Shown: positions 24,801 through 32,086 of the stretch, piece by piece
Layout of the letters: every line of letters begins with the position of its first letter
Numbering within the stretch: position 1 is the first letter of the stretch
IMG/VR virus record: IMGVR_UViG_3300011242_000003
Location: 32,001-96,000 of that record
Direction: 5' to 3' (one strand)
Source: a virus
Lineage: Duplodnaviria > Caudoviricetes
Length of the DNA: 64,000 nucleotides
Translations under genes and position numbers: made by a program
The notes under the pieces: generated by a model
Told to the model about the DNA's origin: nothing
Databases searched by the model: none
The model's input: the letters and a program-made list of their open reading frames with translations, nothing else

Positions 24801-25043
24801 CTAGTACCCTTTTTCAATACTATTTTGTTTGTACTTACAGTTATCACAAAATTCAAAGATTTCATATGGACTTACTTCTAGGGCGTTCATTATTTTCAAG
24901 AAGGTATGTAAGGTAATAGAGCTATTATCTGTATTATTTTCGATTTTTGATACGTAACTTCTATCTACGCCAACTTTACGAGCAAGTTCAACTTGTGAAA
25001 TACCTTTATATTTTCTAATTTCTTTTATCTTAAATTTTATCAT
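24801..25043 (-). CDS. XRE-family HTH transcriptional regulator
   Basis: IKEIRKYKGISQVELARKVGVDRSYVSKIEN; GAGGTG RBS before ATG at 25043. Confidence 0.9.
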   Translation of the reverse strand: MIKFKIKEIRKYKGISQVELARKVGVDRSYVSKIENNTDNSSITLHTFLKIMNALEVSPYEIFEFCDNCKYKQNSIEKGY

Positions 25044-25289
25044 ACGTTTACACCTCAAGAAAAATATATATTTATTATTCTACATTTTCAAGTGGTAATT
25101 ATATACAATTAAAAATATTATAAAAAGTAATGCAATTCAATATAAATAAAATGTAGTAATATGGTGGTAAAATGATTAACTATATAAAATATTGAAAATA
25201 GTCATAAAATGTTTAAATGTTCCTGTCAGTCACGCTTTTACATGGTATGATTAGTATAACAAGTATTTTAAATATTTTTTAACAATCTC

Positions 25290-25734: not shown

Positions 25735-25776
25735 TTTAATATTTTACTTGACATATGGGTATACTATGAGTATAAT
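25735..25776 (+). promoter_or_regulatory. Consensus sigma-A promoter of the repressor operon, with reverse-oriented operator core
   Basis: TTTAATATTTT, then TTGACA (25748)-17 bp-TATAAT (25771). Confidence 0.8.
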
Positions 25777-25822
25777 ATATAATATAAGAAGAAATTATAT
25801 TAAAAATAAAGGGGAAAATATT

Positions 25823-27214
25823 ATGGAAAAGTTTGAAACGCCAAAGAAGTTAATAATTGAATATAAAAAAATATTAGAAGATGAAAAATACTTCAATGAC
25901 ATAAATTTAATAAATCATTTAAGTAGTGCCTTTGCGACAAAGGGATTGCCAAGAGATATTCCTAATAAATTATTCATGGAGTTAACCACGTTAGACCAAC
26001 TAACAGAAATTGAACTAATATGGCTTACTAAAAGTTTGTATGAGTACGAAAAGAAAGTATTTGAAAGCTTTGAACCGATTAGACATTTTAGTGATTTAAA
26101 AATAATAGATGCAGAACAATATGTTGCAAAAGAAGTATATACTGACAAAATAGTATTTGAAAATATTACTAAAGTTAATGATTTTTGTTATATTAGTGGA
26201 TTTACAAAAGCTACAGATATTGCAATTTATAAAAAATCAGAGTTATTTTCTTATGAATTTGACACACAAAGAGAAGGTAAAATAAAAGAAATTGGCACAA
26301 AAGGAGCATTTGTAAAAGAAGTATCTTTAAATGCAGAGTCGGTAGTTAAAATTGGTGAAATGATTTATGATAATAAATATATTCCTGATACTTTAACGAT
26401 GAACGTGCCTTTACTCGGAGATGGCAATAGACCTCTTATAGATTATGATGAAGATAAAAGAACTTTAACAATTACACCGAATTATAATACATCTTCCAAA
26501 AGAGTGACTATATGTAATACAACTGATGGTTGGCATAGAACAAACGGAAGTGAATACGCTTATGATAAGAAAATAAAAGAGGGTAAAGACCCTAATACAA
26601 TTAAAGGTGGATTTGCAGTAATTATCACTTTAATGACTCCGAAACAAGCAAGAGAACATTTTGAAAGAATTAACACCTATAATCCTATTAGTGAAAATTA
26701 TTTAAAAACATTTAAAACAAGCAATGAGTCTAAATTTATTGAGGCTTTAGTAGATTATAATGATAGCAAAAATATATTCAATAATAATGTTTTGAGAACT
26801 TATGAGGAAACAAAGGCATTTAATAAATTAACCTATTATACTTTATTGCAAGATGCCATAAAACAAACAGACATTGATGTTACTGAGTTTCTTTCGGAAG
26901 CAGAAGAACTTCCTAAAATAGTGAAATTCATTACTAAATTTATTGATTATATAGGAGAAACTGAGTTTAAAGATAGTAATAATAAGTATAAAGATATTAA
27001 AGAAAACACTAATTTGTTAGATATGAATATATTTATTGGATATTTTGTTATTGCAGATATGATAAAATCAGAAAATGAAATAAATAAATATGTAATAGCA
27101 TTAGCAAATAAACTAAATAATGATGTAGTAAAAGAAGATTTAAGACAAATGGGATTAAACAATAAGCACTATTCAGCTAAAAAAATAGCAGATTACTTTA
27201 AAGATTTATTTTAG
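25823..27214 (+). CDS. SPbeta YopQ-like protein (DndB/ParB-like DGxHR domain)
   Basis: TQR and DGWHR motifs; lies just upstream of the MrpR-like gene; AAGGGG RBS before ATG at 25823. Confidence 0.6.
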   Translation: MEKFETPKKLIIEYKKILEDEKYFNDINLINHLSSAFATKGLPRDIPNKLFMELTTLDQLTEIELIWLTKSLYEYEKKVFESFEPIRHFSDLKIIDAEQYVAKEVYTDKIVFENITKVNDFCYISGFTKATDIAIYKKSELFSYEFDTQREGKIKEIGTKGAFVKEVSLNAESVVKIGEMIYDNKYIPDTLTMNVPLLGDGNRPLIDYDEDKRTLTITPNYNTSSKRVTICNTTDGWHRTNGSEYAYDKKIKEGKDPNTIKGGFAVIITLMTPKQAREHFERINTYNPISENYLKTFKTSNESKFIEALVDYNDSKNIFNNNVLRTYEETKAFNKLTYYTLLQDAIKQTDIDVTEFLSEAEELPKIVKFITKFIDYIGETEFKDSNNKYKDIKENTNLLDMNIFIGYFVIADMIKSENEINKYVIALANKLNNDVVKEDLRQMGLNNKHYSAKKIADYFKDLF

Positions 27215-27230: not shown

Positions 27231-28316
27231 ATGGAAAGACGTTTTGAAGTTCATAGTTTAGAGGATGAAGGTAGATTAAATAAAGAAGAATTAAGTAAAT
27301 TAGAAAATAGTTTCAAATCAGAAAGCATTTATATTGAAAATGAAGAATTTCTTAAATCTAAGGTTAAATACTTGTTTGATAACTACGACCATGAAAATAC
27401 GTTAGGTGTATATTGGAGAACATTTAAAAATTATATATTAACACCAGAGATTGACCTTGGTAAAAATATATATGAATTTACAAGCAATGAAGTAGAACAA
27501 ATGATGTTATCTATTCCTGCACCACGTAATGTAAAAAATACTATTTATAGATTAGCAAATTTATATATTGATTGGGCATTAAAAATAGAAAAACTAGCTA
27601 TGAGAACAAATCCGTTTGACCCATTTACGGCAGATGATTTATTAATAGTAAATAAAAAAGTTATTCAAAATGAATATATGAGTATGGATGATGTTTTCGA
27701 TATGGCTATTATTTCAGATAAAGAAGGAGTGCCATATCAGAAAATCATAGTATTTATACTAGGAAGATTGGGACTTTATGGCAAAGAAGGTTCATATTTA
27801 GCTGACCTAAGAAAAACTCATATAAATAGAGAAACTAACACTATATCAATAGTTGATGATATGACAGGTGAAATATTATCTCAAATTCCTGTTACAGATG
27901 AAAGAGTATATTATTGGTTAGAGTGTGCTGAGAATGAGACACAATACGATTATAGACCTTATATAACAGAAAATAATGTAGCAAGACGTGGAGCAGAGTT
28001 AGTATTCATAGAGTCTGATGGTAGAGTTTTAAAAAGCTATAATAAAAAATATGATAGAGTTCTCAAAGGTAATTTATATAATGCACTAAAAGAAATTTTT
28101 AGAATCAATGATAGAAAACTAATGGGATTTAAAAAACTTGTAAGATGTGCTAAGTTTGACCAATTAGATAAAAGGCTAAAAGACAACGGTAAATTGACCG
28201 TTACAGACGTTCAAGAAGTTCAGAGGATGTATGAGCCTACCTCAACCTATTCAAGCTATTACACGCTAAAACAGGACTATGAGAGTTATAACCCTAATAT
28301 TAAGATAGAGAAATAA
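27231..28316 (+). CDS. MrpR/YopR-like master repressor (degenerate tyrosine-recombinase fold)
   Basis: E..LGKNIYEFT..E N-domain, YIDWA, NPF; GLYG in place of the catalytic GxR; no HxxR; synteny with the YopQ-like gene; terminator at 28302-28330. Confidence 0.65.
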   Translation: MERRFEVHSLEDEGRLNKEELSKLENSFKSESIYIENEEFLKSKVKYLFDNYDHENTLGVYWRTFKNYILTPEIDLGKNIYEFTSNEVEQMMLSIPAPRNVKNTIYRLANLYIDWALKIEKLAMRTNPFDPFTADDLLIVNKKVIQNEYMSMDDVFDMAIISDKEGVPYQKIIVFILGRLGLYGKEGSYLADLRKTHINRETNTISIVDDMTGEILSQIPVTDERVYYWLECAENETQYDYRPYITENNVARRGAELVFIESDGRVLKSYNKKYDRVLKGNLYNALKEIFRINDRKLMGFKKLVRCAKFDQLDKRLKDNGKLTVTDVQEVQRMYEPTSTYSSYYTLKQDYESYNPNIKIEK

Positions 28317-28351
28317 TCTCTATCTTTTTTATTTATTAAAAAAATATAAAA

Positions 28352-28508
28352 TTAAGTGAATAAAAATATTAAATTGTGTTGACAATAGTAATAAGATACT
28401 ATATACTAATATTTGTGAGGCAGATATATCAAATATTCACAGTCAAACAAAATTAATTAAAATAAAATATTAAAAAGTATTGACTTAGCTGAATATATGG
28501 TATATACT
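28352..28508 (+). promoter_or_regulatory. Tandem sigma-A promoters, each with a 22-bp operator, driving the mazF-TPR-peptide operon
   Basis: Operators at 28352 and 28453; TTGACA (28379)-17-TATACT and TTGACT (28480)-17-TATACT. Confidence 0.75.
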
Positions 28509-28546
28509 TGTAAATATAGTAAATAAATATTAAGGGGTTTTAGAAA

Positions 28547-29224
28547 ATGGTAAGAATGGATTTAGAAGAATTAAAGAAGTTAAAAAGGGGTATGGAAGAA
28601 GAAAGAAATAAACTTAGGGTAATAAGAACAATTAGAAGAGGAGATATTTATTGGTGTGATTTGGGAGATGCAAAATCTAAAGATGATAATGGAATAAAAG
28701 AAGAAGGAGAACAGGCAGGTAAAAGACCTTGTTTAATAGTACAAAACGATATCGGAAATAAATATAGTCCTACAGTAATTGTTATACCAATAAGTTCGAA
28801 AATAGAAAAATGTAAACAACCAACACATACACTAATTACTAAAGAGGATTGCCAAAGTCTTTATAAAGATAGTTATTTGGTGGGAGAACAAATTAATACT
28901 ATAACTAAAAACAAATTAGGCGACTACATAGGTCACGTAATGAATGATAAAATAATTAAAGCAATGAAGATAAGTTTAGGTTTACAAAGGATTACTACTG
29001 AAAAAGAAGATGTTTTAATAAATAAAGTTAAACATTTAAAAGAGCTTGAAATAATGATTTCAATGATGTTAGATAAATCAAATAATATTATAACTGATTT
29101 TATTAAACAGTTTGTAGATGATAGACATAATTTACTACTTGATATTAAAGAATATTGTAATAGAAACAATATGAATTTACATTACTATTATAAAAAAGAA
29201 GAATACATTAAGATAGCAATATAA
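28547..29224 (+). CDS. mazF: PemK/MazF-family endoribonuclease with N- and C-terminal extensions
   Basis: RRGDIYWCDL, EQAGKRPCLIVQNDIGNKYSPTVIVIPISS, DS..GEQI.TI.K..L; about 80 aa extra helical C-terminus. Confidence 0.88.
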   Translation: MVRMDLEELKKLKRGMEEERNKLRVIRTIRRGDIYWCDLGDAKSKDDNGIKEEGEQAGKRPCLIVQNDIGNKYSPTVIVIPISSKIEKCKQPTHTLITKEDCQSLYKDSYLVGEQINTITKNKLGDYIGHVMNDKIIKAMKISLGLQRITTEKEDVLINKVKHLKELEIMISMMLDKSNNIITDFIKQFVDDRHNLLLDIKEYCNRNNMNLHYYYKKEEYIKIAI

Positions 29225-29254
29225 TATTTAAGAGTGTAGATGGGGGAGTAAAAA

Positions 29255-29851
29255 ATGTTAAACATTGATAATGATAGAATAAGTGTATGCACTTGCTTTG
29301 GGGACGGTGAATATGAAAAAGGACGAAAGAAATTATTTGTAATGTATAATACAAAGCTAAAAAAAATAAATAATATTGAAGATATAAGATTTATAATTCA
29401 CAATCTTGCATGGGTTGAATATTATTTAAAAAATATAGAAAGTGCTAGAAAATATTCAACTCAAATAAAAAATATATTTGAAGAAAATGATGCTTATATT
29501 AAAAATTATCCTAGTGAATATTGTAAAATATTAGATTTATACAATATTTCGCATACAGGTATAATTTCTATGGATGAAAAAATAAATCTATATAAGGAAA
29601 CATATGCCATTTACTGTAAAACGGGTTCACCAGACAGATATATGGCACTACATAATATTTATGACTTAAAAAAAGAATATTACAAAATACCTAATCTTTT
29701 AAAGGAAATGCTTTCAAATATAGGAGAACATCAAAATTTTGTATCAGAGTTTTTAAAAGATTTAGAAGAAAATGACAAGCAATCTTACGAAGAATCCCTA
29801 TTAATAATAGAGGAGTTTAAATTGAGCAATGCTTCTATAACTAGTTTATAG
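29255..29851 (+). CDS. TPR-like helical protein, putative RRNPP-type peptide receptor lacking HTH
   Basis: Helical repeats (IIHNLAWVEYYLKNIESARKY; ALHNIY); directly upstream of a secreted peptide gene. Confidence 0.6.
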   Translation: MLNIDNDRISVCTCFGDGEYEKGRKKLFVMYNTKLKKINNIEDIRFIIHNLAWVEYYLKNIESARKYSTQIKNIFEENDAYIKNYPSEYCKILDLYNISHTGIISMDEKINLYKETYAIYCKTGSPDRYMALHNIYDLKKEYYKIPNLLKEMLSNIGEHQNFVSEFLKDLEENDKQSYEESLLIIEEFKLSNASITSL

Positions 29852-29888
29852 AAGATTGACTATAGATATACTAAAGGAGGAAATTAAC

Positions 29889-30077
29889 ATGAAAAAAACA
29901 ACAAAGAAAACAATTTTAATTTTAGGAGGTATGGCATTAGTATTATCATTAATCATTATGCCAATGGCAAAAGGTGAAGGACAAGGTAGTTGGGGTATGG
30001 AGGATTATAGACCATTTGGCACAGGAGAAGGTCAGGGAAGTTGGGGTATGGAATTGCCAACATATTTTAACCGTTAA
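29889..30077 (+). CDS. Secreted signalling pro-peptide with two GEGQGSWGME repeats
   Basis: AAGGAGG RBS; basic-plus-hydrophobic signal peptide; 62 aa; duplicated decapeptide. Confidence 0.8.
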   Translation: MKKTTKKTILILGGMALVLSLIIMPMAKGEGQGSWGMEDYRPFGTGEGQGSWGMELPTYFNR

Positions 30078-30105
30078 GTAAAAGAACATAGACATAATAT
30101 TTACT

Positions 30106-30132
30106 AGAGTAGGAGTCAAAGCCTACTCTTTT
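30106..30132 (+). terminator. Intrinsic terminator closing the mazF-TPR-peptide operon
   Basis: AGAGTAGG-agtcaaag-CCTACTCT followed by T-tract. Confidence 0.8.
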
Positions 30133-30163
30133 TAGAATAATATATTAAATGAGGAGAGGTTGA

Positions 30164-30769
30164 ATGGGAAGAATAAAAGATAATATAATTATTATATATG
30201 ATAATTATGCGGAGATGGTAGTAGAAAGCAAAGGAAACATATATAAAGCGTTAATAGACAAAGAAGACATAAAAAGAGTAGATAAATATAAGTGGTGGTT
30301 GTCATGCAATGGTTATTTAATGACGGATACATATGATGGTGACTATAAAAACAGATATACCATTCACAGATACATATTAAACGTTGATGATAGAGAGATT
30401 CTAGTAGACCATATTAATAGAAATAGATTAGATAATAGAAAATGCAACTTAAGAAAAACAACACCTACTGGAAATAGCATCAATAGGTCAGTACAGAGTA
30501 ATAATAAATCAGGAATAATAGGTGTATCATGGAGTAGAAAACTTAATAAATGGGAGGTTAGAATTAAACTTCATGGAAAGAAGAAATTTATAGGATACAC
30601 TAAAGATTTAGAAGAAGCAACAAGAATGAGATTACAAGCTGAACTAGATATATTTGGAGAAGAGTATGCACCACAAAGACATTTATTTGATAAATATAAT
30701 ATACATACAAGAAATTCAGAAAAATATGATTTAAAATACGAAGATGAATTTAATGAACAAATCAAGTAA
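30164..30769 (+). CDS. HNH endonuclease with AP2 domain (homing-endonuclease type)
   Basis: VDHINRNRLDNRKCNLR, then SGIIGVSW..KW..RI AP2 motif. Confidence 0.9.
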   Translation: MGRIKDNIIIIYDNYAEMVVESKGNIYKALIDKEDIKRVDKYKWWLSCNGYLMTDTYDGDYKNRYTIHRYILNVDDREILVDHINRNRLDNRKCNLRKTTPTGNSINRSVQSNNKSGIIGVSWSRKLNKWEVRIKLHGKKKFIGYTKDLEEATRMRLQAELDIFGEEYAPQRHLFDKYNIHTRNSEKYDLKYEDEFNEQIK

Positions 30770-30862: not shown

Positions 30863-32086
30863 GTGATTAAAATAAAAATATCAAGAGTAGAAAGACATAA
30901 TATTTTAAGAGCAAATCCCTTGTGGAATGAATTAGATAGTCTATGTTTTAAATCCAAAAATCTATATAATTATGCTAATTATATAATGCGACAAAGCTTT
31001 ATAAATAAACAGGGTATTATTAAGTATGGTGATTTAACATATCAATTAAAACATAGTGAACCTTTTAAAGACTTAGGAAGTAATTCCTCACAACATGTTT
31101 TAAAAATGTTATGCAGAGATTGGAAATCGTTTATGGAATTGCTAAAGATGTATAATAAGAATCCAAATAGCTTATTAGGAAGACCTAAACTACCACATTA
31201 TAAAAATAAAAATGGTAGACATATATGTATCTTGACTAATTGGCAATCACAAATTAAAGATGGATATTTATTCTTTGCATTTAAACCTTTGAAGCCTTTT
31301 AATAATAAAATTAAAACTAAAACAAAAGGAAAACATATGCAAACTAGAATTATACCTAAAGGTGTTTGTTATATATTAGAGATAGTATATGAAATTGAAG
31401 TACCTGATATAAAAGAAGAATCTAAAAATATTTCTAGTATTGATTTAGGGATAAACAACTTTGTAACTTTATCAAATAATATTGGTGCAAAATCAATTAT
31501 TATTAATGGCAAGGGGATTAAATCTTATAATAAATACTGGAATAAGCAAGTTGCAAAATATAGAGCATTAGCAAAAATTAACAATGCTTTAGATTGGAGT
31601 AAAACTTTAGAAAGGTTATATAATCAAAGATACAATAAAATGGAATATTGGATGCATAAGATAAGTAAAGAAGTTATTAATTATTGCATAGCATTAAATA
31701 TTGATACTTTAGTTGTAGGATTGAATAAAGAGTGGAAACAAGAAAGTAAAATGAATAATATAGTAAATCAAACTTTTATTCAAATTCCATATGATAATTT
31801 AATTAATAAACTAAAGTACAAATGTGAAAATGTAGGGATTAAATTTATAATCACAGAAGAAAGTTATACGAGTGGTACATCATTTTTAGATAATGAATTA
31901 CCAATAAAAGAGAACTATAATAAATCAAGACGAGTTAAAAGAGGTTTATTTAAATCCAATAATGGTATGTTGATAAATGCTGATTTAAATGGCAGTTATC
32001 AGATAATGAAAAAAGTATTTCCAAATGCTTTTACAAATGGGATAGTGGGTGTAGATTTACATCCTGTAGTGATTAATTGTTATTAA
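30863..32086 (+). mobile_element. tnpB: IS200/IS605-family (IS1341-like) TnpB RNA-guided nuclease, no TnpA
   Basis: RuvC motifs SIDLGINN, EESYTS, NADLNGSYQI; right-end-like hairpin AATGGATT/AATCCATT at 32108-32127. Confidence 0.88.

Follow-up and report, generated by a model that had tools for sequence, protein, structure and literature searches.

To our knowledge, peptide communication among phages comprises arbitrium and the phage-borne Rap-Phr systems, both in Bacillus phages. In phage phi3T, arbitrium acts, only indirectly, through the MazF of the host, and a high level of the AimP peptide leaves host MazF active and favors lysogeny (PMC10769878), a background that the initial annotation of the DNA studied here had cited correctly. 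More generally, RRNPP systems are recognized computationally (RRNPP_detector) by a propeptide of 10-100 amino acids (aa), its Sec (SignalP) or SHP type, a receptor of 250-500 aa, peptide-binding tetratricopeptide repeats (TPRs) in that receptor, and adjacency of the two genes (PMC10075063). Here, we examined a 64,000-nt stretch of DNA from a large Clostridium-type phage (hereafter, the window; positions 32001-96000 of an IMG/VR virus record that spans 146.8 kb, has 27% G+C, and is an estimated 79% complete), in which a compact unit at 28352-30132 consists of two tandem promoters and three genes bracketed by two terminator hairpins, as read from the list of open reading frames (ORFs) and from the sequence itself. 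The genes, each preceded by a good ribosome-binding site, encode a long MazF/PemK-type protein (MazF-long), a 198-aa protein consisting of TPRs only, and a small Sec-type propeptide, and they lie directly 3' of a gene for an MrpR-like repressor. All elements listed by the initial annotation (MazF, the 198-aa protein, the 62-aa ORF, the promoters, and the terminator) were recovered in place, as was the neighboring repressor gene. We are inclined, with confidence slightly above even, to regard this unit as a peptide sensor of the Rap/Phr kind by which the phage controls its own MazF, probably in the lysis-lysogeny decision.

Set beside the RRNPP features above, the unit shows three of the five, namely a small propeptide, a receptor that is TPR by fold, and adjacent genes, and the sequence features of the peptide fit a fourth (secretion). 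The candidate receptor, at 198 aa versus 250-500 aa, falls outside the length range, and it carries no RRNPP effector module, neither a helix-turn-helix (HTH) domain nor the N-terminal three-helix bundle of Rap. The unit therefore belongs to none of arbitrium, Rap-Phr, PlcR/Qsr, and canonical MazEF.

Comparison with about 30 related loci showed the genes in the same order in each one examined, which argues that the unit is more than a chance arrangement. In the close family (60-84% identity, found in metagenomes only), every contig with enough flanking sequence carries MrpR, MazF-long (211-220 aa), the TPR protein (196-198 aa), and the propeptide (44-62 aa). The distant members compared (25-32% identity; L017, L019, L020, L022, L023, L032, L033, and L035) share an order of a divergent HTH gene, a small ORF, a YopQ-like gene, MrpR, MazF-long, TPR, and peptide, so that the three-gene synteny anticipated for related phage loci holds beside MrpR down to 25-30% identity. 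MazF-long is followed by the TPR gene, with a spacer of 11-30 nt, in 15 of 15 distinct phage-type lineages (the window, L002, L003, L006, L009, L010, L016, L017, L019, L020, L022, L023, L032, L033, and L035; in L010, only the end of the gene upstream of TPR is visible), and an MrpR-like gene lies directly 5' of MazF-long in L002, L003, L006, L019, L020, L022, L023, L032, and L035. A small ORF, either Sec-type or short and hydrophobic, lies 3' of the TPR gene in all loci but three. No match was found when the operon, the TPR protein, and two distant family members were searched by blastn/tblastn against 50,697 GenBank phages, nor in two further single-protein scans of viral contigs, and neither IMG/VR nor the GTDB species genomes yielded a relative in a locus search seeded with the close-family alignment.

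Gene fusions give independent genomic support for a functional link between MazF and the TPR protein. The fusion of two proteins that are separate neighbors elsewhere is classical genomic evidence for a functional, and usually physical, link. We identified seven genes in which a PemK domain and a TPR domain are joined in a single chain of 312-332 aa, in 5 of about 390 Clostridiaceae species genomes, one of which (G283) holds three copies. The PemK domain is recognized by Pfam (7e-11), the TPR domain matches the family profile (E 3.8e-7, hhalign 86%), and a Sec-type propeptide is encoded 3' of each fusion (7/7). The fusion-associated peptides have GGGG-containing tails in L036 and L037, three (I)DPPM units in L049, a VDPPMP ending in L050, and the sequence ...PIVWSIKxPQVxK in L051, L053, and L054. 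Because an IDPP-type core is common to some of the fusions and to the unfused locus L032, the two architectures can be linked. The fusions are without the helical hairpin that extends MazF-long, which fits the idea that the hairpin might be a non-covalent docking element that takes the place of the covalent link.

The 198-aa protein was modeled with AlphaFold2 (AF2) from eight homologues at a predicted local distance difference test score (pLDDT) of 91.8, and the whole chain, with 11 helices, forms a TPR superhelix. All top structural matches of the model are TPR proteins (Foldseek, VIA), and no HTH or other DNA-binding domain was detected by Pfam or in the structure model, in agreement with its earlier description as an HTH-less TPR protein. 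The tied best structural match, at Z 14.1, is the TPR domain of kinesin light chain in complex with a Trp-acidic cargo peptide. PlcR with PapR follows at Z 13.6, with a root-mean-square deviation of 2.9 over 166 residues and an alignment that covers the TPR part after the HTH, and RapH, RapI, phi105 Rap with peptide, and pLS20 Rap give Z values of 11-12, with the model aligned solely to their TPR part (chain residues ~90-290). As a curiosity only, the ligand of kinesin light chain is a W-D/E cargo peptide, and the candidate pheromone described below also has a Trp followed by an acidic residue (SWGME).

At the sequence level, the 198-aa protein belongs to a family of short TPR-only proteins. 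It has no family in Pfam, NCBIfam, PHROGs, or PADLOC, and the TPR hidden Markov models of Pfam give sub-threshold matches only, in a few family members. A profile search of 1.8 billion representatives returned 61 relatives, nearly all of 160-230 aa, and a separate search for relatives longer than 402 aa returned none. Those with a name belong to Clostridium cibarium or unclassified Clostridium, and several of the family lie on 130-150-kb contigs. A profile search of the PDB sequences with the TPR family gave noise only, and fold searches of BFVD and ESM-Atlas gave generic TPR proteins only. Profile comparison relates the family to a Qsr-like RRNPP receptor that bears an HTH: over 167 columns, the family aligns with the TPR region at the C-terminus of an Xre-HTH+TPR regulator of 466 aa (hhalign 95.4%, E 1.7e-8). 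A paralogue adjoining this regulator is followed by a peptide ending in SYSPMLGW, an ending that fits the Pro(-5)/Trp(-1) signature of the Qsp pheromones of Clostridium acetobutylicum (PMC7376267). The locus in question (L034:60-2058) is a tandem array of Qsr-like HTH+TPR regulators with a 32-aa peptide gene (379-477) for the SYSPMLGW ending, and an apparently degenerate peptide remnant follows the second receptor gene.

The third gene of the unit has a strong AAGGAGG ribosome-binding site and lies 37 nt from the TPR gene; in all peptide-bearing loci, the two genes adjoin or overlap. Its product begins with an n-region MKKTTKK and an 18-residue hydrophobic core, after which it reads KGEGQGSWGME-DYRPFGT-GEGQGSWGME-LPTYFNR. 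Among the relatives, the propeptides range from 17 to 70 aa, and each shows a K/R-rich n-region, a hydrophobic core of 15-18 residues, and a c-region of small residues when the sequences are read by eye rather than with a signal-peptide predictor. The secreted part is about 15-35 residues long and has no Cys and no lipobox. In seven propeptides with two copies of the core, the repeats are identical in protein sequence, with 3-7 synonymous differences in five of the seven, one in L033, and none in L032; this restriction to synonymous change points to selection on the peptide unit. Similar layouts are documented elsewhere, as phage Rap-Phr propeptides have tandem pheromone copies and C-terminal tails (PMC11343458), and QspB (AEPTWGW) has its mature pheromone inside the propeptide, with a tail after it (PMC7376267).

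The peptide core tracks the phylogeny of the receptor in a tree of the TPR proteins. The window, L003, and L010 have two copies of GEGQGSWGM(E), L007 and L009 have GEGKP(G/S)WGT, L006 has EDGKPGWGME, and L002 has GDGLPEWGMT. Further away, the core is GKQSWG in L017 (two copies, the second C-terminal), DKGMWG in L020 (two copies), and a C-terminal KSGGSWG in L022, and L016 has an 18-aa hydrophobic peptide ending in GGWG. Two copies of IDPPIA and of ILNPW are found in L032 and L033, respectively. The secreted repeat peptide and the receptor/peptide co-variation suggested by the initial annotation are both borne out by these comparisons: the propeptide is of a secretion type as judged from its sequence features, its repeated core is under purifying selection, and the core differs by receptor clade (xWG, IDPPIA, ILNPW).

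The first gene encodes a MazF/PemK protein with about 80 additional C-terminal residues and no MazE, as had been proposed. PF02452 matches residues 30-137 at 84.6 bits (cut-off 23.1, E 7e-24), and residues 28-153 resemble the MazF/EndoA structures of Staphylococcus aureus and Bacillus subtilis (phmmer, E ~1e-21). About 28 extra residues, forming a helix, precede this domain and 75-80 extra residues follow it. The C-terminal extension contains a helical hairpin (residues 152-177 and 184-206) with a pLDDT of ~78 inside an otherwise poor AF2 model (pLDDT 53 from 6 sequences), and we make no claim on how the extension packs. Such long phage MazFs already form a full-length family in PHROGs (phrog_35650), and a search with the C-terminal extension alone found three close relatives besides the window's own protein. 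In alignment with the canonical short MazF of Clostridium hosts, the GxRP Arg, I-S-S, PTH, and EQ columns are kept, and Arg60 (GKRP) and Ser83 (PISS) align with the GVRP and AIT of S. aureus MazF and Clostridium host MazF, columns that we take to be those of the catalytic Arg25 and Thr48 of B. subtilis MazF. By alignment, MazF-long thus keeps the catalytic positions of canonical MazF.

MazF-long is the only PemK match in the 146.8-kb record. For MazE, no ORF of at least 30 aa is present in the 230-bp leader and PF04014 has no match in the 146.8-kb record, ribbon-helix-helix-type MazE not having been searched separately. UACAU is the cleavage site of Bacillus and Staphylococcus MazF. This pentamer is not depleted on the sense strand of the phage genes (213 observed versus 160 +/- 11 after codon shuffling) and there is therefore no sign of self-avoidance by the phage, with the limit that the site of the Bacillus and Staphylococcus enzymes may not be that of MazF-long.

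In the mechanism that we propose, the propeptide would leave the cell via Sec, be processed extracellularly to short peptides with an S-W-G(-M) core, two per precursor, and then be re-imported. The peptide would sit on the concave face of the TPR protein, which, because it has no DNA-binding domain, would act through protein-protein contact as Rap proteins do; its target would be MazF-long, probably contacted at its additional helical hairpin. In the absence of peptide, the TPR protein would keep MazF-long inactive and so replace an antitoxin. At a high peptide level, reflecting many infected or lysogenic cells, it would release MazF, RNA would be cleaved, and the infection would be pushed to lysogeny. 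The reading of the initial annotation is thus supported in part: its genome-level expectations held, and its peptide-switchable antitoxin or partner is a candidate role. The sign proposed here, in which the peptide releases MazF, is taken by analogy from Rap-Phr and phi3T. A role in lysis-lysogeny is favored because the unit is positioned directly after YopQ/MrpR. The sign of the switch and its final output (lysis-lysogeny versus density-dependent defense) are the least certain steps.

Several observations weigh against a peptide-gated MazF. The TPR fold matches are generic, with kinesin light chain scoring as well as PlcR and Rap, and because the Z values are tied among generic TPRs, fold alone is no proof of RRNPP membership. 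In all fusions, the column of the catalytic Arg reads His, so that the fused MazF domains may be non-RNase or may have an altered chemistry. No peptide ORF is found in L023, its near-copy L024, or L035. Under the proposed sign, constitutive peptide in lysogens would keep MazF free, and the sign may be the reverse. The Clostridium phage c-st has a 220-aa long MazF (CST027) just upstream of its YopQ/YopR homologues with no TPR gene and no secreted peptide alongside; it seems that large Clostridium phages regularly carry a long MazF in their MrpR-type lysogeny region. CST028 of c-st was considered as a diverged TPR partner and ruled out, being not all-helical-looking and without a match to the family profile. 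Finally, the TPR and peptide genes occur without an adjacent MazF at four loci, three in C. cibarium and one, L031, in another Clostridiaceae genome. The three C. cibarium paralogues are 100%, 64%, and 63% identical to the family member P0013, and one lies on a 6-kb contig with 393x coverage and a relaxase-like ORF, which is probably a small plasmid and resembles the Rap-Phr cassettes riding on Bacillus plasmids. Each TPR gene of this clade is followed by a 17-20-aa hydrophobic peptide ending in D(M/K)WG, which overlaps the stop codon. Judged from gene content, this shows the receptor and the peptide to be the indivisible core; the TPR protein can work without a linked MazF-long, perhaps on the very similar MazF of the host or on another target. 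A pure antitoxin role is complicated by this clade, in which TPR and peptide persist with no MazF next to them.

These exceptions bear on three other explanations. The TPR protein and peptide could be an autonomous Rap/Phr-like cassette acting on a host protein (e.g., host MazF/MazE or a sporulation or competence regulator), with MazF-long a separate gene governed by its own extension and adjacency reflecting a shared accessory slot after the repressor. The MazF-less loci, including the plasmid-like contig, the TPR-less long MazF of phage c-st, and the canonical short MazF encoded in host genomes, which is very similar to the phage nuclease domain, would all suit such a cassette. We nevertheless consider it quite unlikely, as MazF-long and TPR are never apart in the phage lineages, with 11-30-nt spacers maintained over very deep divergence, the seven MazF-fold/TPR fusions keep a peptide, and the MazF-less clade looks derived because it is nested within MazF-linked clades in the TPR tree, with L016, a locus that combines MazF-long with a short hydrophobic peptide, as its sister. 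The main alternative for the output, conceivable though on balance unlikely, is that the same wiring serves a prophage-encoded, density-dependent abortive-infection or superinfection defense that is expressed from the lysogen, rather than the phage's own lysis-lysogeny decision. The unit has strong sigma-A-type promoters of its own and is bracketed by terminators, a classic "moron" layout beside a repressor gene; MazF toxins are established defense effectors, and host MazEF acts as a phage defense in the phi3T work (PMC10769878); and the fusions lie a few kb from ordinary integrases of integrated elements, not beside MrpR. However, the unit matches no PADLOC defense model, its strict place after the YopQ/MrpR pair in about 10 lineages suits a component of the switch better than a freely shuffled moron, and the genes 3' of it vary (HNH, pRha, ORF6N, or Bro/ANT among relatives) while the upstream partner is constant. 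Least of all do we expect an absence of signaling, in which the TPR protein would be an ordinary antitoxin or a phage-protein sensor like the STAND/Avs TPR sensors, and the small ORF would have nothing to do with it, encoding a secreted or membrane-bound accessory (e.g., an exclusion or immunity factor) without re-import; this we hold to be very improbable. TPR domains do sense proteins in many defense systems, and the small ORF is missing at three loci, as noted. Yet a short secreted part free of Cys and lipobox with a duplicated core kept by synonymous change only, a core that changes with the receptor clade, a clade that swaps the propeptide for 17-20-aa hydrophobic peptides ending in the same W-G, and the kinship of the receptor family with RRNPP receptors of the Qsr type, whose pheromones likewise have Trp near their end, all speak against this explanation.

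Two near-consensus, sigma-70-type promoter-like sites, P1 and P2, head the unit. They lie in a 60-nt block that is duplicated 101 bp apart inside the 230-bp leader, and the pair is preserved in the close relatives L002, L003, and L006. A conserved AATATTAAA box stands 5' of each -35 in the window and in close relatives. The initial annotation had called these promoters operator-bearing; the two promoters stand, and the operator status of the AATATTAAA box is unsupported. Neither this promoter-upstream box nor the leader box recurs as a regulon motif elsewhere in the window. Between the tandem promoters, about 70 nt (28408-28479) contain a short inverted repeat, TGTGA...TCACA, at roughly 28405-28441, because of which P1 might yield a short leader or small RNA before P2; this layout is also preserved in L002, L003, and L006. 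The predicted closing terminator is confirmed as a hairpin followed by UUUUU, although a consensus scan missed it because the T-run is only 5 T long before A and G. The positions of these elements, of the genes on either side, and of the fused and MazF-less genes discussed above are collected in the table.

Table. Positions of the unit, its neighbors, and related genes at other loci (window positions unless a locus is named).
Feature	Position	Strand	Support or remark
Xre/Cro-type HTH gene, head of lysogeny region	24801..25058	-	Pfam HTH_3 1.4e-15; same divergent HTH gene in L020, L022, L023
YopQ/SroE-like gene before repressor	25748..27214	+	phrog_5732 3.9e-32; same position as annotated YopQ homologue CST029 in phage c-st
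MrpR (YopR/SroF)-like integrase-fold repressor	27231..28316	+	Pfam MrpR_N_CB 2.6e-8; phrog_5830 ("integrase") 1.6e-22
Terminator hairpin 3' of mrpR, upstream boundary of unit	28302..28326	+	10-bp stem and T-run
Promoter-like site P1, TTGACA-17-TATACT	28379..28407	+	11/12 consensus matches; within duplicated 60-nt block
Promoter-like site P2, TTGACT-17-TATACT	28480..28508	+	10/12 consensus matches; kept in L002, L003, L006, L009
MazF-long, 225 aa	28547..29224	+	PF02452 7e-24; phrog_35650, full length
TPR-only candidate peptide receptor, 198 aa	29255..29851	+	AF2 pLDDT 91.8; TPR fold matches; no DNA-binding domain
Sec-type propeptide, 62 aa, two candidate-pheromone copies	29889..30077	+	Sequence reading; homologous small ORFs 3' of TPR gene in relatives
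Repeat 1, GEGQGSWGME	29973..30002	+	Protein identical to repeat 2; 5 synonymous differences in 30 nt
Repeat 2, GEGQGSWGME	30024..30053	+	Protein identical to repeat 1
Terminator hairpin closing operon	30106..30134	+	8-bp stem, 8-nt loop, UUUUU; -11.9 kcal/mol, z = -2.4 (RNA fold)
HNH endonuclease gene directly 3' of operon	30164-30769		phrog_99 1e-36
IS605 OrfB/TnpB-like gene 3' of HNH gene	30863-32086		PF01385 6e-20; Cas12f1-like TNB 4e-8
PemK+TPR fusion gene	L036:904-1902
PemK+TPR fusion gene	L037:1486-2484	-
PemK+TPR fusion gene	L049:1078-2016
PemK+TPR fusion gene	L050:1483-2421	-
PemK+TPR fusion gene	L051:1096-2043
PemK+TPR fusion gene	L053:1495-2442	-
PemK+TPR fusion gene	L054:1111-2070
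MazF-less TPR gene	L025:161-806		C. cibarium Sa3CVN1
MazF-less TPR gene	L026:4980-5637		C. cibarium Sa3CVN1
MazF-less TPR gene	L027:4998-5637		C. cibarium Sa3CVN1
MazF-less TPR gene	L031:1483-2138		Another Clostridiaceae genome
CST027, long MazF of phage c-st	L014:3989-4651		NC_007581 22935-23597

Full-text literature searches on RRNPP, phages, MazF, TPR, arbitrium, Clostridium, and MrpR returned no description of such a module. Tentatively, and with confidence a little short of even, we suggest that it may represent a new class of peptide communication, in which the receptor has a ribonuclease toxin as its output in place of a transcription factor or phosphatase-type regulator. In such a system, a receptor made of TPRs alone would gate a phage-encoded MazF, either non-covalently (in MrpR-type Clostridium phages) or within a single chain (in integrated elements), and would set lysis-lysogeny or abortive defense by the density of related phages, with the four components of arbitrium (AimR, AimX, host MazE, and host MazF) collapsed into two proteins. 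If this is true, large temperate Clostridium phages would have an independent peptide language, and the unit would be the first case in which a receptor for a quorum peptide is linked directly to a toxin, at the post-transcriptional level and with no binding to DNA. It would also be a minimal switch of two proteins and one peptide (or, when fused, of one protein and one peptide) that lends itself to reconstitution and engineering, and with pherotypes as diverse as xWG, IDPPxx, and ILNPW, among others, cross-talk between phages can be tested directly. Moreover, a receptor class of about 200 aa would be excluded by the 250-500-aa filter of RRNPP pipelines, and the census of peptide signaling in Firmicutes and their mobile elements would be incomplete.

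Compared with arbitrium, the unit shares a phage-encoded, putatively secreted propeptide, a candidate cytoplasmic receptor of the TPR type, and a MazF RNase as the proposed downstream effector, and it sits beside YopQ/YopR (Sro/MrpR) repressor genes, the region that flanks arbitrium in SPbeta-like phages. However, AimR is a protein of about 380 aa with an HTH that acts on aimX transcription, whereas the receptor here has 198 aa and no DNA-binding domain; no sequence similarity to AimR was detected for it by Pfam or by the PDB profile search, and no aimX-like element was identified. The MazF of arbitrium belongs to the host and is controlled via the small proteins AimX and YosL, whereas MazF here is phage-encoded, extended, and in the same operon as, or fused to, the receptor. 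AimP is a single C-terminal hexapeptide, whereas the core here has about 6-10 residues and is internal, often duplicated, and followed by a C-terminal tail.

With Rap-Phr, whose cassettes are found on chromosomes, on plasmids, and in the phages phi3T and phi105, the unit shares an HTH-less TPR receptor that would bind a target protein and be switched by an imported peptide, a Sec-type propeptide encoded directly downstream, tandem pheromones with C-terminal extensions (PMC11343458), and carriage on phages and small plasmids. By contrast, Rap proteins have about 375 aa, an N-terminal three-helix bundle, and seven TPRs, and they target Spo0F, ComA, and similar regulators with no link to a toxin; no sequence-level relationship to them was found, and the TPR family described here is Clostridium-associated and half the size. 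The Qsr-Qsp systems, which are PlcR-like RRNPP systems, are likewise clostridial, with Trp-containing pheromones near the propeptide C-terminus (PMC7376267), and their TPR region is homologous by profile, as given above. They differ in that Qsr proteins exceed 400 aa, have an Xre HTH and 6-8 TPRs, and are transcription regulators with no MazF link. A further parallel is the contested idea of an "extracellular death factor" (EDF) in E. coli, the peptide NNWNN, which enhances MazF. As in MazEF and EDF, MazF would be neutralized by a co-encoded protein, and a Trp-containing quorum peptide is proposed to modulate it. Unlike in MazEF, where a cognate MazE (AbrB- or RHH-type) is encoded upstream and autoregulates the operon, there is no MazE, and the candidate neutralizer is a protein of TPR fold, devoid of a DNA-binding domain, whose gene lies downstream; unlike EDF, the peptide is encoded by a gene of its own with a signal-type sequence, has a candidate receptor dedicated to it, and would not act on MazF directly. 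Overall, by analogy, the unit seems most like Rap-Phr in its logic, and most like arbitrium in its genomic position and its connection to MazF.

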